Part shown: positions 16,983-23,900 of the stretch, piece after piece | Layout of the letters: every line of letters begins with the position of its first letter | Numbering within the stretch: position 1 is the first letter of the stretch | Source: a virus | Lineage: Duplodnaviria > Heunggongvirae > Uroviricota > Caudoviricetes | Length of the DNA: 23,900 bases | Strand: one strand, 5' to 3' | Virus record (IMG/VR): IMGVR_UViG_2778261223_000025 | Coordinates: 1-23,900 of that record | Made by a program: the position numbers and the translations under genes | Notes under the pieces: model-generated | Told to the model about the DNA's origin: nothing | Database searches by the model: none | What the model saw: only the letters and a program-made list of their open reading frames with translations

Positions 16983-17366
16983 TTATCTAATGTTGCTGCT
17001 ACTGTTGCATGTGACGGTATTCCCAAATCCTGAATTGCAGTTTGTATATGTGTCAACGCGTGTTGGGTAAGGTTGAGTTATAACAGGCTGGCGCGCTTTT
17101 TGCTCGATCGCTTGCATTGTGTTTACAGCCTGATAATTCAATAAAGCCTGCTGGAATGCTTGGCTTTGTGCTATTTGTTGGGCTTGTTCTTGGCTTTGTA
17201 ATTGAACATAAAGATTCTGAAGCTCAAGTCTTGCCTGTGCGTCACTTATCTTGCCTTGATCGACACCTTGCCCGAGCATCTTCGCAGCAAGGACATACAG
17301 CTTAGGTGTTGGTGCTGATGCCATGCGTGAGTCGTTCTTCACGCTGGCATCAAGGCAATTAGCCAT
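16983..17366 (-). CDS. Hypothetical Q-rich coiled-coil protein, probably a lipoprotein whose signal peptide is encoded upstream of the first ATG
   Basis: 127-aa ORF from the first ATG; the same frame is open upstream to 17507 and encodes (I)KKSLLIIPLLLAG-C, a lipoprotein-type signal peptide, with no in-frame ATG/GTG/TTG; ATA codons at 17478-17480 and 17466-17468. AT-rich. Confidence 0.55.
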   Translation of the reverse strand: MANCLDASVKNDSRMASAPTPKLYVLAAKMLGQGVDQGKISDAQARLELQNLYVQLQSQEQAQQIAQSQAFQQALLNYQAVNTMQAIEQKARQPVITQPYPTRVDTYTNCNSGFGNTVTCNSSSNIR

Positions 17367-17493
17367 ATCACTAAGCTTTGGATAGCGTTGCTCGCAACTT
17401 GCTTGGTAGTCACTTACTTTTGCGCATCCAGCCAGCAGAAGCGGGATAATTAATAGTGATTTTTTTATAAAGTTATTTATAAAATCCTTTCTA

Positions 17494-17808
17494 TTATTTA
17501 TCAGAAGTTAGATTGTAATAATTGGTATAAGCTGAAATTGACTTCTGGCATGCTTCAAGAAATTCCTGTGGATTCATTCCTAGTCTTGCTTGCTCTGTGG
17601 TCAGAAAACGCTGTAAGAACTCATCTCCGCCAGGCATTTTTGTTGATTCTTGAAATGTTGCCATTTGTTTGATTGTGCCGCACATGCCAGCAAATTTCGA
17701 AGTTATCATGAGTTCTTGCAGGCCTTTAAGATCGCCATTATCTGATTTTGGTTTGGCGAAAACTATTGTAGAGAAGAACAATATTAACAAAATAGCGATA
17801 CGTTTCAT
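17494..17808 (-). CDS. Hypothetical small secreted protein with Sec signal peptide
   Basis: 104 aa; N-terminus MKRIAILLILFFSTIVFA followed by KPK; start ATG overlaps the mnt stop (ATGA), implying translational coupling; AT-rich; no family recognised. Confidence 0.6.
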   Translation of the reverse strand: MKRIAILLILFFSTIVFAKPKSDNGDLKGLQELMITSKFAGMCGTIKQMATFQESTKMPGGDEFLQRFLTTEQARLGMNPQEFLEACQKSISAYTNYYNLTSDK

Positions 17809-18373: not shown

Positions 18374-19303
18374 ATGAAAAGTATAGCAACAGCAGTATCT
18401 ACTATCAACGTGCCATTCCACGGCGCAGAGCTTTATGTCGTCAATCACAACGGTGAGCCGTACACCCCAATGAAACCTATCGTTGAAGGTATGGGTATGG
18501 ATTGGGCTTCACAGTTTACGAAAATAAAGCAACGGTTTAAAACCTCCATTGTGAAAATCACAATGCAGCTTCCTGGTGATGAACAGTGCCGTGAGATTAT
18601 TTGTTTGGCACTTCGCAAACTTGCTGGCTGGCTGCAAACCATCAGTCCAAACAAAGTCCGCCCTGAAATCCGCGACAAGGTAATCCAGTATCAGGAAGAG
18701 TGTGACGATGTGCTCTACGAGTACTGGACTAAAGGCCATGTAGTTAACCCACGCAAAGCTAAAAAGGCGTTGCCGGGTAAAATCACCACTGAACAGCAGG
18801 AAGCCATTAAACAACTCGTCATGAGTCGCGGTCAGTCTCTGCCAAAAGAAAAACAGGCGAAGGCAATGATTACCATGTGGTCGTCGCTGAAATCTCATTT
18901 TGGGTGTTCATACAAAGAAATCAGCGATGAGCAGTTTACCGAAGCTCTGTCACTTGCAGCTCGCGTTCCGCTTGAAGGCGAGTTAATCGGCAAACAAGAG
19001 AAGAAAGCAAACGAGCTTTCTGCAAAAGAAGCAAACAGCCTTGTATGGTTATGGGATTATGCCAACCGCTCACAGGCATTATTCCGCGAACTGTATCCGG
19101 CGCTAAAACAAATTCAATCGAACTATTCAGGCAGATGTCATGACTGTGGTTATGAGTTCTCCCGTATTATCGATATGGCGAGAGACGTTTTAATCAATCA
19201 CTCACGAGATGTTGATATCAATGAGCCAGACGGACCAACGAATCTTTCCGCATGGATGAGACTTAAGAATAAAAAATTACCTCCTTCAGTACATAACTAC
19301 TGA
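18374..19303 (+). CDS. ant: Antirepressor Ant
   Basis: 309 aa (P22 Ant about 300); N-terminus has the typical antirepressor look; follows arc and precedes the tailspike as in P22 immI. Confidence 0.8.
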   Translation: MKSIATAVSTINVPFHGAELYVVNHNGEPYTPMKPIVEGMGMDWASQFTKIKQRFKTSIVKITMQLPGDEQCREIICLALRKLAGWLQTISPNKVRPEIRDKVIQYQEECDDVLYEYWTKGHVVNPRKAKKALPGKITTEQQEAIKQLVMSRGQSLPKEKQAKAMITMWSSLKSHFGCSYKEISDEQFTEALSLAARVPLEGELIGKQEKKANELSAKEANSLVWLWDYANRSQALFRELYPALKQIQSNYSGRCHDCGYEFSRIIDMARDVLINHSRDVDINEPDGPTNLSAWMRLKNKKLPPSVHNY

Positions 19304-19321
19304 CAGATAACCAACGCAACG

Positions 19322-19346
19322 ACCCAGCTTCGGCTGGGTTTTTTTA
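19322..19346 (+). terminator. Rho-independent terminator between ant and the tailspike gene
   Basis: Perfect stem acccagc/gctgggt with a cUUCGg tetraloop, then TTTTTTT. Confidence 0.8.
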
Positions 19347-19403
19347 TACCCAAAATTCACCGTAGCCACGCTGCGGCGATTCCTTGCATCTGGAGCAAAT
19401 TAA

Positions 19404-21533
19404 ATGACAGACATTACAGCCAATGTGATTGTATCTATGCCTTCGCAACTCTTCACTATGGCGCGTTCTTTTAAAGCGGTTGCCAATGGCAAAATTTATA
19501 TCGGTAAAATTGACACTGACCCGGTAAATCCTGAAAACCAGATTCAGGTTTATGTGGAGAACGAAGACGGTTCTCACGTTCCTGTTTCGCAACCAATCAT
19601 CATTAACGCTGCTGGATATCCGGTATATAACGGACAGATTGCCAAGTTCGTAACTGAGCAAGGCCATTCCATGGCTGTATATGATGCGTATGGTGCGAAG
19701 CAGTTCTATTTTCCTAATGTGCTGAAGTATGACCCTGACCAATTTCAGTTCACGCTCTCGTCAGACACTGGCGCAAATCTTGTCGGCATCAAGAGAACTG
19801 GACTGCCAAATAATAACTCTACTACTGTTGGTGCTTACTATCAGACAACACCTATCAACGCGGTAACAGATTACGGAATGAAAGGGGATTTCGACCCGTC
19901 AACTGGATTTGTTAACGGAACGAATAACCGTTCTGCACTTCAACAATTGATGGATGATCTGGTAAATATCGGTGGAAACAAAACTGTAACCATTCCTCCG
20001 GGTAACTATTACTTCAACTTTGACGGTAGCACTAATCCTGGTGGTGTTGGGGTTATGTGGGGAAGGGTCGGTGCAGGGTTAAAGAATGTCACATTCCTGT
20101 GCTATGGCGCCACATTTTACTCTGGGAGCATTGGCAGACTTAACGGCATATTCAGCGCTAATTATGGTGTAAGGATAAAAGGCTTGAGAGTGATAGGGTT
20201 CGGCGGCGGAACGCTCGCTCCTTCACGAGAAAGGGATGCTATCTTTGCTCTTGCCTACAACTGCTGTGGGGTAACATTTGATGAGTGTTACTTTGCTAAC
20301 AGCATGGGGGACTGCGTTTATCTTGGTGGCAGTCTTGATGACGGCTCTATAACTGGATTATTTTGCAGGGATATCGCTTTTAATGGCTGTACTTTAAAAG
20401 AAAGATACGGGGATGGTATTAGATCTTACTACAGCGGATCTAGGTCAAGGATGGCTATTGCTGTTATCGACTGCGTTGGTCTCAGGATTGATAACTGCAA
20501 AATAGTAGGCGGAATAGACTTCGAACCAAACGCAACAAACCAGCGCCTGCAGAATATGATGGTAGGTAATACCAGGTTCCATGCAGGAAATGTCCTTGCA
20601 TACACTGGAACAAACCCATTTTACGAGGAGCAAATCAATAGCGGAACTCAGGTTATACGTGGAGACATCCGATTCCAGACGCGAGCGGGTGGGGTCATCA
20701 CTCAGAATATTCATATATCTAACGTATCATTCGACTACGGATGCATCAGGCAGACATCTCTTGGTATAGCTGACGTTATTTATGAAAACATAAGAATGCG
20801 CAGGGGTATATTGGTGGTTGGTTCTGACTCAGGCACAAACTTCAACCCATCTGCAAACTTCAATGATGTTTATGTTGATCTGGCTCTTAACGGTTCAGAT
20901 GATGATATCTTTGAGTTGAATGGGTCAGGCACAACACCTCCTACATTGCCAGCAGTAGTCATGTTGATACAGGGAAATCTTACATACGCAAGATTTAATG
21001 GGATAAGTGGAGGGAATACCATCGGTGCATTTAGTTACCTGTTTTATGCAGATCCAACACACACAGCTGGTGATGCGGGGAGGAGCATTTACGCAAACTG
21101 CAGCATACTTGGCGGTAACCTTTACAACTACACTATCCCGGATAGCAGTCAGGAACTTGGAAACACATCTATGCCAGCCTCCGGAGTTGCCTTTACAAAA
21201 TACCGTAGGATTAATACTGACCTAATCATGCAGTCGGTTGGTGCTCTAAGCATATCCGCAAGCGGTTCAATAGACTGGAACGCATTCAGAACAAGCAAAT
21301 TGGCAGTAACTGCTACCACTACAGGCCTGCAAATATCAGGGATTGTTAATGGCCCTATGGTTGGTGCTGAGGTTCAGATAAGGAATAGTGGATCAAACCC
21401 CATAATTCTGGCTCACAGTACATCTTTCTATCTTAAAGGAACAACTAGTGCCACCCTTGACGATACGAGAAAGGTGGTGACGTTCCAGTACATCTCTTCA
21501 GGAGTATGGACGGAGATATACCGGAACTTTTAA
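19404..21533 (+). CDS. 9: Tailspike protein with P22-type N-terminal head-binding domain and a divergent receptor-binding domain
   Basis: 709 aa; the first roughly 110 residues match the conserved P22/HK620 tailspike N-terminus from memory; the rest is G/N/S/T-rich, consistent with a beta-helix, and differs from the P22 and HK620 domains I can recall. Confidence 0.9.
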
Positions 21534-21574
21534 TCAGTGTCCATGGATGGCCATCTTTCACCAGTTATCTTCAT
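21530..21574 (-). pseudogene. gtrB: gtrB remnant: 14-codon stub beginning MKI, ending on the tailspike stop codon
   Basis: Minus-strand ATG overlaps the gtrA stop (ATGA), the normal gtrA-gtrB junction; encodes [14 protein letters not shown] then TAA, which shares bases with the plus-strand tailspike TAA. Confidence 0.5.
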
Positions 21575-21935
21575 TTCCCATCCCTAAAGACAATGAACTT
21601 TTAATAGACGAAACCGCACACCAGACTGATGGCGGAGAAGGTGATAAGAGTGACAATTGGAGGAAGTGCGCATCTATCAGCAGCCCATCCAATAGTAGCA
21701 CTCAGTGTCCCCATGAACCCGACATATAACATGTAGCGCATCGTTGTAGTCGATGTTTTGAATGTGAATCTTGCATTCGCGAAGAAGCTAAAGCTCACAG
21801 CCACAACGAAACCTGCGAAGTTTGCCAAAGCCTGATTGGTATGCTCGGCATAGATACATACACCAAAAACCACCCAGTGTATAAGTGTGTTCAGCACACC
21901 AATCGAGGTGTGTACTTTGCAAATAGCTTTAACAT
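21571..21935 (-). pseudogene. gtrA: gtrA (bactoprenol-glucose flippase) pseudogene with frameshift and premature stop
   Basis: ATG at 21935 gives MLKLFAKYT then stop after 14 codons; GtrA continues (SIGVLNTLIHWVVFG...) in another frame after a 1-nt insertion in an acacacc run; in-frame TAA at 21601-21603 is followed by 9 sense codons (KFIVFRDGK) up to the ATGA junction; repaired length about 120 codons. Confidence 0.72.
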
Positions 21936-22400
21936 TTCTTATATCAGGTAATAATCAAAGTCATGAAGTCTATCATCCAAGTCTCAATCGATCGATGACT
22001 TGCTGTGGTTGATGAGACAAAACTGATGCACACAAAGCTTTGCGCTGGATTGCAAGGCTTTGTACTCTTCGATAGTGGTTAAGGCGGTTCACTCCACCTT
22101 TTCATCAATCCAGTCCGCCCACCACTGCATCATTTCTCTGCGCTTATCGTGGCAGATGCCTCACTATCACACGGTGATGGTTCATTACTGGTTTGCATAA
22201 TGGATAGAGAACTGAGGATAAAAGATATCCCAAAACCCAAAAATCTCATCTTTAGGATTTGCAGAAAGGGAGGCGTGAACAAATACCTGCGCATGAAAAC
22301 GGAACTAGTCCAGATGTGATGTTTGTGGTGATCACATACATCATTAACGATGCTCGTTATGGTGAGTTTGATGATTACCCACTGAAGTGAAAATTGTGTT

Positions 22401-22424
22401 GTGTACCAAATTGCGTACCAAACT
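22401..22424. repeat. Imperfect tandem 12-bp direct repeat in the junction region upstream of dacD
   Basis: gtgtaccaaatt / gcgtaccaaact, matching at 10 of 12 positions. Confidence 0.4.
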
Positions 22425-22727
22425 AAAATCACAAATCATGAAACCCTTGTTCATGGCGGTTCTCAGGGGTGTTGCGCGTAATCGTGAAACAAAAAGGTAG
22501 ATTGTTGCTTACCGTCATTCATCATTAGGTTAAATCCGTTATTTCTGCTATCTGCCAGAGTATCAAATATCACCGTGCTAATCAGCTTTAGCGCGACAAT
22601 TTGACAGCGAGTGGCAACAAATCATGTCAGATAAAAATGAGAGGGTAGTCACATTTTCTTGCACTTTATTCCAGCCAGTTCATAAGTATTTCCGTAAAAA
22701 GAACAGCTATTTGAAACTCCTGAGGGT

Positions 22728-23900
22728 TTGCTGTTGAAACGCCGTCTTATTATTGCTGCTTCTTTGTTCGTTTTTAACTTATCGTCTGGTTTTGCGGCGG
22801 AAAACATTCCTTTTTCACCTCAGCCTCCAGAGATTCATGCCGGGTCCTGGGTATTGATGGATTACACCACCGGTCAGATTCTCACCGCGGGTAATGAGCA
22901 TCAACAGCGCAATCCCGCCAGCCTGACAAAGCTGATGACGGGCTATGTCGTGGATCGCGCTATCGATAGTCATCGCATTACGCCAGACGATATTGTCACC
23001 GTGGGGCGCGATGCGTGGGCGAAAGATAATCCGGTGTTTGTCGGTTCTTCACTGATGTTTTTGAAAGAGGGCGATCGCGTATCGGTACGTGATTTAAGCC
23101 GTGGTTTAATTGTGGATTCCGGAAATGACGCTTGTGTTGCTCTGGCTGACTATATTGCCGGTGGGCAACGGCAGTTTGTTGAAATGATGAACAACTATGC
23201 CGAGAAGCTGCATCTCAAGGATACGCATTTTGAAACAGTGCATGGTCTGGATGCACCTGGCCAGCATAGCTCGGCTTATGATTTAGCCGTGCTTTCTCGC
23301 GCTATCATCCACGGCGAGCCCGAGTTTTATCATATGTACAGTGAGAAAAGCCTCACCTGGAACGGTATCACCCAGCAAAACCGTAACGGGTTATTGTGGG
23401 ATAAGACCATGAATGTTGACGGCCTGAAAACGGGTCATACTTCTGGTGCCGGGTTTAATCTTATTGCTTCGGCTGTAGACGGGCAGCGTCGCCTCATTGC
23501 AGTGGTAATGGGTGCTGACAGCGCAAAAGGTCGTGAGGAAGAGGCAAGAAAATTACTGCGTTGGGGGCAACAAAACTTTACTACGGTGCAAATTTTGCAC
23601 CGTGGGAAAAAGGTCGGAACGGAACGCATCTGGTATGGCGATAAAGAAAATATCGACCTGGGAACGGAACAAGAGTTCTGGATGGTGCTACCGAAAGCCG
23701 AAATTCCACATATCAAAGCCAAATATACCCTTGATGGTAAAGAACTCACCGCGCCAATTAGCGCCCATCAGCGGGTAGGGGAAATTGAACTTTACGACCG
23801 TGATAAACAGGTGGCGCACTGGCCGCTGGTTACCCTGGAATCTGTCGGGGAAGGCAGCATGTTTTCCCGCCTGAGTGATTATTTCCACCATAAGGCCTGA
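22728..23900 (+). CDS. dacD: D-alanyl-D-alanine carboxypeptidase DacD (PBP6b), host gene
   Basis: 390-aa ORF recognised as E. coli DacD, with signal peptide and SxxK motif (ASLTKLMT); the track start is a TTG at 22728 and a TTG at 22734 (MKRR...) is an alternative; stop at 23898-23900. Confidence 0.93.
   Translation: MLLKRRLIIAASLFVFNLSSGFAAENIPFSPQPPEIHAGSWVLMDYTTGQILTAGNEHQQRNPASLTKLMTGYVVDRAIDSHRITPDDIVTVGRDAWAKDNPVFVGSSLMFLKEGDRVSVRDLSRGLIVDSGNDACVALADYIAGGQRQFVEMMNNYAEKLHLKDTHFETVHGLDAPGQHSSAYDLAVLSRAIIHGEPEFYHMYSEKSLTWNGITQQNRNGLLWDKTMNVDGLKTGHTSGAGFNLIASAVDGQRRLIAVVMGADSAKGREEEARKLLRWGQQNFTTVQILHRGKKVGTERIWYGDKENIDLGTEQEFWMVLPKAEIPHIKAKYTLDGKELTAPISAHQRVGEIELYDRDKQVAHWPLVTLESVGEGSMFSRLSDYFHHKA

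Follow-up and report, generated by a model that had tools for sequence, protein, structure and literature searches.

Does the gtr-like DNA beyond the tailspike gene of this P22-like prophage still encode an O-antigen glucosylation (serotype-conversion) operon, or only the relic of one? Intact GtrA is a protein of about 120 aa with four transmembrane segments (Pfam PF04138), and GtrB, encoded immediately downstream, is a family-2 glycosyltransferase of about 305-310 aa. GtrC, a serotype-specific, polytopic membrane protein encoded downstream of gtrB, attaches glucose to the O-antigen, and this glucosylation alters the receptor recognised by the phage's own tailspike. GtrB loads glucose onto undecaprenyl phosphate, and GtrA flips the lipid-linked glucose across the membrane (PMC4413052). 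We analysed a stretch of 23,900 nucleotides that contains the locus (hereafter the window) and compared it with intact and truncated gtr loci. Judged from these comparisons, the locus is very probably a non-functional relic of a gtrABC operon.

The locus lies inside a P22-like prophage integrated at sbcB

Full-length Pfam matches identified the P22-type virion genes gp3, terminase, P22_portal, scaffold, P22_CoatProtein, gp4, gp10, needle, gp7 and gp20, and Arc/Mnt and Ant were also detected with Pfam. This virion gene set, together with the P22 head-binding domain of the tailspike, places the element among the P22-like (Lederbergvirus-type) prophages (Table 1). Prophage DNA ends on the right in the attR region, whose ~30-nt att core (22477-22506) is repeated at attL of the E189 prophage, beside int, and duplicates the 5' end of sbcB, which assigns integration to sbcB from an attR in the window and an attL seen in E189. 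The chromosomal flank is 98.8% identical to K-12. Apart from the gtr relic, the prophage appears intact.

Table 1. Features of the window discussed in the text, with positions counted from its first nucleotide
Feature	Positions	Strand	Description
P22-like (Lederbergvirus-type) prophage in E. coli			Inserted at the 5' end of sbcB, beside dacD
Tailspike gene	19404-21533	+	709 aa, intact
P22-type head-binding domain	19404-19744	+	Pfam Head_binding, residues 1-113, E=3.5e-65
Receptor-binding domain	19745-21533	+	Foreign to all relatives
Chimeric 14-codon ORF	21530-21574	-	gtrB start reading into the orphan spacer
Orphan spacer, 29 nt	21534-21562	.	TCAGTGTCCATGGATGGCCATCTTTCACC; between tailspike stop and gtrB remnant
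gtrB 5' remnant	21563-21574	-	ATGAAGATA plus up to 3 nt; ATG at 21574-21572
gtrA pseudogene	21571-21935	-	365 nt, against 363 nt in intact genes
gtrA nonsense codon TAA	21601-21603	-	S111*; TCA (Ser111) in seven intact references
(AC)3 tract	21908-21913	-	2-nt AC insertion relative to (AC)2 of intact genes
gtrA upstream region	21936-22149	-	Conserved in HF4s, N7, E212, HK620 and CPS-53-type yfdG loci of E. coli
humD (umuD-like) pseudogene	22150-22387	+	N-terminus absent, frameshifted; NCBIfam HumD
attR region	22477-22525	-	First 49 nt of K-12 sbcB (blastn against K-12 and the complete E189 prophage)
dacD (PBP6b), host chromosomal flank	22734-23900	+	Pfam Peptidase_S11 and PBP5_C

The gtr-like sequence (21530-21935, minus strand) abuts the tailspike stop and lies between it and attR. 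Intact relatives show the order tailspike, gtrC, gtrB, gtrA, att (E189, HF4s and SfV), and the order in SPN9CC is the same, so a decayed gtr module in the canonical place between tailspike and att, as originally predicted, is what we found. We rejected the idea that the relic belongs to the remains of an earlier prophage beyond the present one, since its position is internal to attR. A second P22-like backbone shares the block from 18970 to attR at 99.8% identity, which implies that the relic travels in phages that are still recombining.

gtrA is broken by a frameshift and a nonsense codon

A tblastn search with intact E189 GtrA matched the window gtrA at 91% amino acid identity (E=2.5e-68), and its DNA shares 93.6-95.6% identity with the intact gtrA genes of E. 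coli E189 and phage HF4s. When repaired, its translation matched the Pfam GtrA_DPMS_TM model from end to end (52 bits; cut-off 26.1). As it stands, the gene encodes no intact GtrA, since a +2 frameshift at codons 8-9 and the S111* nonsense codon interrupt its reading frame. In alignments with intact genes, codons 8-9 have changed from TACACC to TACACACC; phages N7 and HF4s and strain E189 have TACACC without the insertion, and E212 has CACACC, also without it. The original prediction of a 1-nt insertion after codon 9 is thus corrected to 2 nt, AC, within codons 8-9. The frameshift leads to a stop at codon 15 (TGA, 21893-21891), and the ATG frame translates as MLKLFAKYTPRLVC*, a product of 14 aa. 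The in-frame TAA that had also been predicted 10 codons before the end of gtrA is present, and it costs GtrA its final 10 codons. Phase variation through the (AC)n tract was considered and rejected, as three repeats are too few and the carriers are all identical.

The window gtrA also encodes four residues, including A30E, that are absent from seven intact references. Compared with HF4s it has 8 non-synonymous and 10 synonymous differences, against 3:12 between two intact genes, an excess that is not significant (Fisher p=0.27 and 0.15). The gene is possibly under relaxed constraint, the trend being in the expected direction and not significant.

gtrC and nearly all of gtrB are missing

Alignment with E189 and HF4s showed that gtrB contributes no more than the initial 9-12 nt, about 3 codons, to the 14-codon ORF. 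All full-length database matches, which came from 614 complete E. coli genomes and phages HF4s, SfI, SfII, SfIV and SfV, begin at window positions 21563-21570. The TAA of this ORF (21532-21530) overlaps the TAA of the tailspike gene (21531-21533) by 2 nt. The original prediction described a gtrB of 14 codons whose stop is shared with the tailspike; the ORF and the shared stop are as described, and the gtrB portion shrinks to the three codons given above, so that the short "gtrB" ORF should be annotated as a chimera.

No further gtrB was detected in the 23.9-kb window by tblastn with two GtrB proteins. Searches of the same DNA with two GtrC proteins found no gtrC, a result to be read in the light of the diversity of GtrC families, which makes sequence search by itself a weak test for this gene. 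Between the gtrB stub and the tailspike stop there is no ORF, just 29 nt, which leaves no room for gtrC and agrees with its predicted absence. The locus therefore encodes neither the GtrB nor the GtrC of a functional operon. For gtrBC as a whole, absence applies to the right-hand 22.5 kb of the prophage, the left arm (int through early genes) lying outside the window. Measured against intact relatives, all of gtrC and all of gtrB except 9-12 nt have been lost, which amounts to about 2.4 kb when E189 is the reference and about 2.2 kb when HF4s is.

From the broken gtrA and the missing partner genes, we infer that the locus provides no Gtr activity, and the predicted loss of O-antigen modification is supported as far as the window extends, on the evidence of sequence. 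A second gtr operon could exist elsewhere in a host, as 614 of 5,426 E. coli genomes match the gtrA segment full-length; these include K-12-type strains, in which it is annotated yfdG/yfdH beside intS. The gtrA gene may have lost its partner genes first and decayed afterwards, an order that the carriers do not reveal, since each of them has the full set of lesions.

Related loci range from intact operons to short stubs

The closest intact counterparts are the gtrABC operons of HF4s (a Lederbergvirus) and E189, in which the same gtrA and gtrB-start sequence lies directly after the tailspike gene, on the opposite strand. The E189 prophage is moreover integrated at the same site and shares the gtrA-humD*-attR-dacD flank. 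Both operons are intact (gtrA 363 nt, gtrB 918-924 nt, gtrC 1233-1518 nt), whereas in the window gtrA is broken, gtrB is reduced to ~10 nt and gtrC is absent, and their tailspike receptor-binding domains are unrelated to that of the window. In the Shigella flexneri phages SfI, SfII, SfIV and SfV, gtrA and the gtrB start are 89% identical to the window at the DNA level, but belong to functional gtrA-gtrB-gtr[type] operons next to attP and int on phages that are not P22-like. In SfV a tail-fibre assembly gene lies just past gtrV, while the copy in the window is dead and sits on the prophage of a P22-like podovirus. The yfdG-yfdH-yfdI locus of K-12 prophage CPS-53 (KpLE1) is about 92% identical to 21563-22140 across yfdG, the yfdH start and the upstream DNA; it belongs to a different cryptic prophage, next to intS, and annotation shows its gtrA and gtrB homologues as intact.

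Truncated operons resembling the window are found in other coliphages. E212, EC.P3, N7 and HK620 (Lederbergvirus) share the segment upstream of gtrA, and in these phages a short unrelated spacer after the tailspike is followed by a truncated gtr operon. About 46 nt of gtrA remain in E212 and EC.P3 and about 60 nt in N7, and the gtr-less HK620 retains 33 nt of upstream DNA only; compared with these, the stub in the window, with the whole of gtrA and the start of gtrB, is the least eroded. Many E. coli genomes likewise contain truncated gtr stubs of other lengths.

A gtrA pseudogene in a remnant gtr operon has already been published for the Salmonella prophage BTP1, a P22-like prophage whose remnant operon at the tailspike consists of the gtrA* pseudogene STMMW_03921 and gtrC-BTP1 (Kintz et al. 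2015, PMC4413052). BTP1 thus resembles the window in its prophage type, in the position of gtr beside the tailspike gene and in its gtrA pseudogene, but its gtrC survives and actively modifies the O-antigen (PMC4413052), whereas nothing functional is left in the window. The two also differ in host genus and integration site. Deletions of gtrB and pseudogenes of gtrC are known from Salmonella gtr operons (PMC3688519).

The junction may mark a tailspike cassette import or a deletion

One rearrangement has fused gtrB, at about its fourth codon, to DNA 29 nt beyond the tailspike stop. DNA homology to all relatives stops where the head-binding domain ends, at 19744, and picks up again at 21563, so the receptor-binding domain and the 29 nt form one foreign block. 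PDB matches to the tailspike were confined to its N-terminal part, namely residues 1-116 (P22-type entries) and 1-218 (Sf6 tailspike, 7sg7). For the 1.8-kb block 19745-21562, E. coli genomes and phages yielded no relative at the DNA level, and IMG/VR yielded none for the receptor-binding domain. Protein relatives of the receptor-binding domain are found on other N-terminal anchors and in other genera, and the 90% cluster to which this tailspike belongs includes WP_242172048.1 of Enterobacter sp. I4, WP_251364684.1, WP_268602760.1 and HFP6220236.1. The C-terminus (...WTEIYRNF*) is native to the tailspike, being common to a 70% relative in contig L009; no gtr lies downstream of this nearest P22-type relative. 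G+C content is flat (0.40-0.47) over 19400-22000, so composition is uninformative about the edges of a cassette.

An exact match to the 29-nt spacer itself was found in neither IMG/VR nor GTDB genomes nor JGI metagenomes, and a blastn search with 21526-21566 (E<=10) of 5,426 complete E. coli genomes returned nothing. The C-terminal peptide of the chimeric ORF occurs in no reference GtrC protein, none of which ends in this way. A back-translated ...WPSMDTD* pattern gave one match in the genome collection and four in the metagenome collection, all on high-GC soil or Bacillota contigs without Gtr context and all judged to be chance.

We slightly favour the import of a foreign receptor-binding cassette, which fits these data as well as a deletion of roughly 2.2-2.4 kb does. 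The left crossover would have fallen where the head-binding domain meets the receptor-binding domain, and on the right the cassette would have been joined illegitimately within gtrB. Cassette import is supported by the exact breaks in homology at 19744 and 21563 around a block without DNA relatives in E. coli or phages, by the protein relatives on other N-terminal anchors and in other genera, and by the lack of gtr downstream of the 70% P22-type relative. Other coliphages keep gtrA stubs of varied lengths after different tailspikes.

The alternative, to which we assign somewhat less than an even chance, is a plain internal deletion, in which an ancestor with this tailspike and its own gtrC, gtrB and gtrA lost about 2.2-2.4 kb. 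The lost segment would have reached from codon 4 of gtrB into gtrC, as far as its last ~10 codons, and the 29 nt would be the 3' end of that gtrC. Deletion is the most economical single event, Salmonella gtr operons provide known cases of conserved gtrB deletion (PMC3688519), and in intact relatives 12-26 nt separate the end of gtrC from the tailspike stop. Past the junction, the gtrB frame runs on for 10 codons, and its TAA overlapping the tailspike stop resembles a convergent gene end; however, chance alone would give ten open codons about 60% of the time, which deprives the open frame of any weight. Against a deletion, searches of E. coli genomes, phages, GTDB genomes and metagenomes revealed no gtrC with such a 3' terminus or C-terminal peptide, the receptor-binding domain is foreign to every gtr-bearing relative, and no carrier of this tailspike type was seen with an intact gtr operon. 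Deletion and replacement are indistinguishable because no parental sequence was found for the 29 nt. Of the originally predicted deletion from early gtrB to just past the tailspike gene, the loss of gtrB and gtrC therefore stands, and simple deletion becomes one of two readings that fit equally well.

Residual function and sequencing error are improbable

It is highly improbable that the remnant keeps some function, either as a shortened GtrA working with gtrBC elsewhere in the host or as a terminator or regulatory spacer. The GtrA and GtrB of one gtr operon are usually considered able to replace those of another, many E. coli have a second gtr locus, and a 98-aa ORF (21601-21897) with an internal GTG start at 21897 spans GtrA residues 14-110. 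However, this ORF is missing a portion of the first transmembrane segment as well as the 10 conserved residues at the C-terminus, has by eye no Shine-Dalgarno sequence ahead of the GTG, and carries the four residues unseen in intact genes, A30E among them. A regulatory role finds no counterpart at the junction, where neither a terminator nor a promoter-like pattern was predicted, no Rfam family matched above noise and no stable fold was found; RNA structure in the spacer 21534-21562 was not significant (z=0.08).

The chance that the lesions are sequencing or assembly errors in a truly intact gtrA (or gtrAB) is negligible. Errors often take the form of short indels in repeats, and the insertion does fall within the (AC)n tract, but a tract of only (AC)3 is not long enough to invite them. 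The absence of gtrB and gtrC is a structural difference (tailspike-dacD spacing is identical in contigs L002, L003 and the window), one carrier contig has a 94%-identical variant tailspike yet the same junction and lesions, and the junction, AC insertion and TAA recur in three NCBI assemblies and four separate SRA runs, whose differing backbones exclude derivation from one erroneous reference. The junction and both gtrA lesions are base-for-base the same in eight independent public contigs; those designated L002-L008, from the assemblies and runs just named, match the window across the junction and gtrA. GCA_002233385.1 is an example of a carrier strain. An intact gtrA once errors are excluded, which would have spoken against the original prediction, was thus not borne out.

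Implications for annotation and host range

A "GtrA family" match in this prophage must not be taken as serotype-conversion capacity, and a phage-glucosylated O-antigen should not be predicted for carrier strains from this locus. The decay described here is real but ordinary loss of prophage accessory genes, and it leaves the current view of gtr operons and P22-like phages unchallenged. The relic does lie at the right edge of a rare receptor-binding cassette and, with the stubs of other coliphages, forms a small breakpoint series that could test the linkage of tailspike swapping and gtr loss, a modest evolutionary point. We tentatively raise, and consider rather unlikely, the wider idea that gtr stubs of differing length are scars of repeated host-range cassette swaps in P22-like coliphages. 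A new receptor-binding domain would then enter by homologous exchange at the head-binding boundary, and its right side would join illegitimately inside the gtr operon. If this were true, each receptor switch would destroy a now mismatched serotype-conversion module, and host-range change would be mechanically coupled to loss of O-antigen modification.

The interval between gtrA and attR holds a second dead gene, humD, in which positions 51-75 and 87-128 of the NCBIfam HumD profile are matched in two different frames. The same feature is annotated as a pseudogene in the RefSeq annotation of strain MB10.

A putative dead gtr operon between the tailspike gene and attR

The first 22.5 kb of the window are the right-hand part of a P22-like prophage; the rest is host DNA, with 98.8% identity to E. 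coli K-12 from 22477 rightwards. In the complete genome of E. coli strain E189, a related prophage sits between dacD and sbcB in the order dacD, gtrA, gtrB, gtrC, tailspike, other prophage genes, int, sbcB, with the ~30-nt att core repeated at its int end (attL). As the attR/host boundary of our prophage maps to the right of the gtr interval (22477 onward), this interval lies within the prophage, flanked by the tailspike gene on one side and attR on the other. At exactly the equivalent position, gtrABC is intact in E189, phage HF4s, SfV and SPN9CC, and the original prediction of a decayed conversion module between tailspike and att was right in substance. Both sequence and position argue for derivation from a gtrABC operon; a functional operon it is not, because gtrA, gtrB and gtrC are broken or absent. 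From its sequence, we read the locus as a dead gtr operon in a prophage whose remainder looks intact.

Features of the prophage right end and adjoining host DNA
Feature	Coordinates	Strand	Description
gp3, large terminase, P22 portal, scaffold, P22 coat, gp4, gp10, needle, gp7, gp20			virion genes; full-length Pfam matches
Mnt/Arc and Ant			after virion genes, before tailspike
Tailspike	19404-21533		709 aa; P22 head-binding domain
gtrA homologue	21935 to 21571	minus	tblastn against intact E189 GtrA, E=2.5e-68, 91% identity
humD/umuD-like pseudogene	22150-22387	plus	N-terminus missing; two fragments in different frames; between gtrA and attR
attR region (first 49 nt of sbcB)	22477-22525	minus	match to K-12
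dacD	starts 22734		host gene

The insertion site is the 5' end of sbcB, of which the first 49 nt and the upstream region remain on the dacD side at attR; the counterpart region for the att repeat lies at 42775-42820 of the E189 locus (L013). As the sbcB annotated beside int in E189 has 1425 nt and that of K-12 has 1428 nt, a replacement 5' end appears to have been supplied by the phage end. Between gp16 and mnt, two ORFs on the minus strand (127 and 104 aa; 16983-17808) are without a Pfam family and match only the unknown-function PHROGs phrog_6067 and phrog_19844; this slot is variable, since another contig with the same gtr junction (L002) has different genes there.

Lesions in gtrA

The repaired gtrA translation matches Pfam GtrA_DPMS_TM end to end, and the gene is 95.6% identical in DNA to that of E189 and 93.6% to that of HF4s. 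An insertion is present, as predicted, but it is of 2 nt within codons 8-9 and not of 1 nt: in the alignment, TACACC of E189 (the uninserted form, also in HF4s and coliphage N7) becomes TACACACC in the window, giving a gene of 365 nt against 363 nt when intact. Translated from the gtrA ATG, the altered frame gives MLKLFAKYTPRLVC followed by a stop. The predicted in-frame TAA ten codons before the end of the gene was confirmed at codon 111 of the original frame, where 7/7 intact references have TCA, and the last ten residues are lost. Four residues (A30E, A60T, V81I, A119G) are unique, occurring in 0/7 intact references. Relative to HF4s, gtrA has 8 non-synonymous and 10 synonymous codon differences, against 3 and 12 between two intact genes, substitutions that would fit relaxed constraint with a difference that is not significant (p=0.27).

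The gtrB stub and 29-nt spacer

Where E189 has ~2.4 kb (gtrB from nt 10, the whole of gtrC, then a 12-nt spacer), the window has 29 unrelated bases; in comparison to HF4s the equivalent missing stretch is ~2.2 kb. By tblastn, neither gtrC nor further gtrB was found anywhere in the 23.9-kb window, in agreement with the predicted absence of gtrC. The 14-codon ORF ascribed to gtrB is present by translation, and its TAA does share two bases with the tailspike TAA; its gtrB origin held only in part, however, as only ATGAAGATA and at most ~3 further bases derive from gtrB. Full-length matches all start at 21563-21570 (614 complete E. coli genomes plus HF4s, SfI, SfII, SfIV and SfV), and ~900 E. coli genomes match the segment on its right side alone, with a left edge that varies among them. 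The 29 nt (21534-21562) had no match in E. coli genomes, IMG/VR, GTDB genomes or JGI metagenomes, and no promoter-like site, terminator, Rfam family or stable structure was found at the junction.

Origin of the junction

Homology to all E. coli relatives ends together with the head-binding domain, at 19744, and returns only at 21563. For the intervening 1.8-kb block, comprising the receptor-binding domain and the 29 nt, searches of 5,426 complete E. coli genomes and 50,697 phage records gave no DNA relative. The domain itself (19745-21533) is rare: INPHARED phages contain no DNA homologue of it, and sequence comparison gave no relative among solved structures. Its protein relatives (48-59% identity) have other N-terminal anchors and come from records labelled Pseudomonas aeruginosa, Escherichia marmotae and Obesumbacterium, the first two at 56-59% identity and with different N-terminal anchor domains. 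A 70% relative of the domain, on a P22-type tailspike, is followed by a terminator, with no gtr genes.

Import of a receptor-binding cassette, through a homologous crossover at the boundary between head-binding and receptor-binding domains and an illegitimate junction in gtrB on the right, would account for the two breakpoints no less well than a deletion. The plain deletion originally proposed, with ends in early gtrB and just beyond the tailspike gene, is possible but over-specific on mechanism, since the homology gap spans the receptor-binding domain, and this domain, like the 29 nt, is foreign to E. coli relatives. Both cassette import and deletion stand, as neither the four sequence collections nor pattern scans and reference GtrC ends yielded a parent for the 29 nt. 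Every carrier has every lesion; gtrA may have decayed after loss of its partner genes.

A sequencing or assembly artefact is ruled out, and the lesions stand: three NCBI assemblies and four SRA runs yield contigs that match the window identically across the junction and gtrA.

One of these contigs (L008, 6000-8130; SRR8989446) has a mosaic tailspike variant, 94% identical in the receptor-binding domain. Its tailspike equals that of the window except for an internal ~700-nt patch of 77-86% identity (window 20400-21200), which points to probable recombination within this domain; downstream, the junction and gtrA lesions are the same. Four independent draft contigs (L004, L005, L007, L008) all stop at window 22143, near the end of HF4s and N7 homology at 22149, which suggests an assembly-graph branch at sequence common to another locus. 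Contig L006 departs from the window at 22245 into 77 nt resembling an insertion sequence end.

Comparison with other gtr remnants

Decay of gtr operons is already documented. In the P22-like Salmonella prophage BTP1, a gtrA* pseudogene lies next to the tailspike gene, in a gtr operon that the authors describe as a "remnant" (PMC4413052), and conserved gtrB deletions as well as gtrC pseudogenes are known among the gtr families of Salmonella (PMC3688519). Lederbergvirus coliphages share the layout of the window but break at other points. E212 has the tailspike stop, a 30-nt spacer and then the initial ~46 nt of gtrA, a segment that EC.P3 also matches. N7 keeps ~60 nt of gtrA, and HK620 just 33 nt of gtrA-upstream DNA. 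Our observation, real and with two details corrected, is an ordinary case of a known phenomenon, and the annotation value of the locus is small; the one lead of mild interest is the possibility that these stubs mark swaps of tailspike cassettes.

The mobile right end

From 18970 to attR (18970-22525; mid-ant, tailspike, gtr relic, attR), the window is 99.8% shared with a second P22-like prophage (contigs L002, L005, L007), in which the immI and ejection-protein regions either differ or reach only 84-96% identity. As this block is conserved while the immI and ejection genes diverge, the right end moves between backbones as a unit, and the relic therefore rides in still-recombining phages and not in a collapsing prophage. 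The humD feature is annotated as a pseudogene in E. coli MB10 and is also a pseudogene in relatives with intact gtrABC, so its decay predates that of gtr. The same dacD/sbcB site is occupied in MB10 (L011, 1-5400) by a very dissimilar prophage that carries genes for baseplate J, YmfQ and the StfP tail fibre and has intact gtrABC at its end; gtr, the humD pseudogene and attR thus form a unit common to unrelated phage types.
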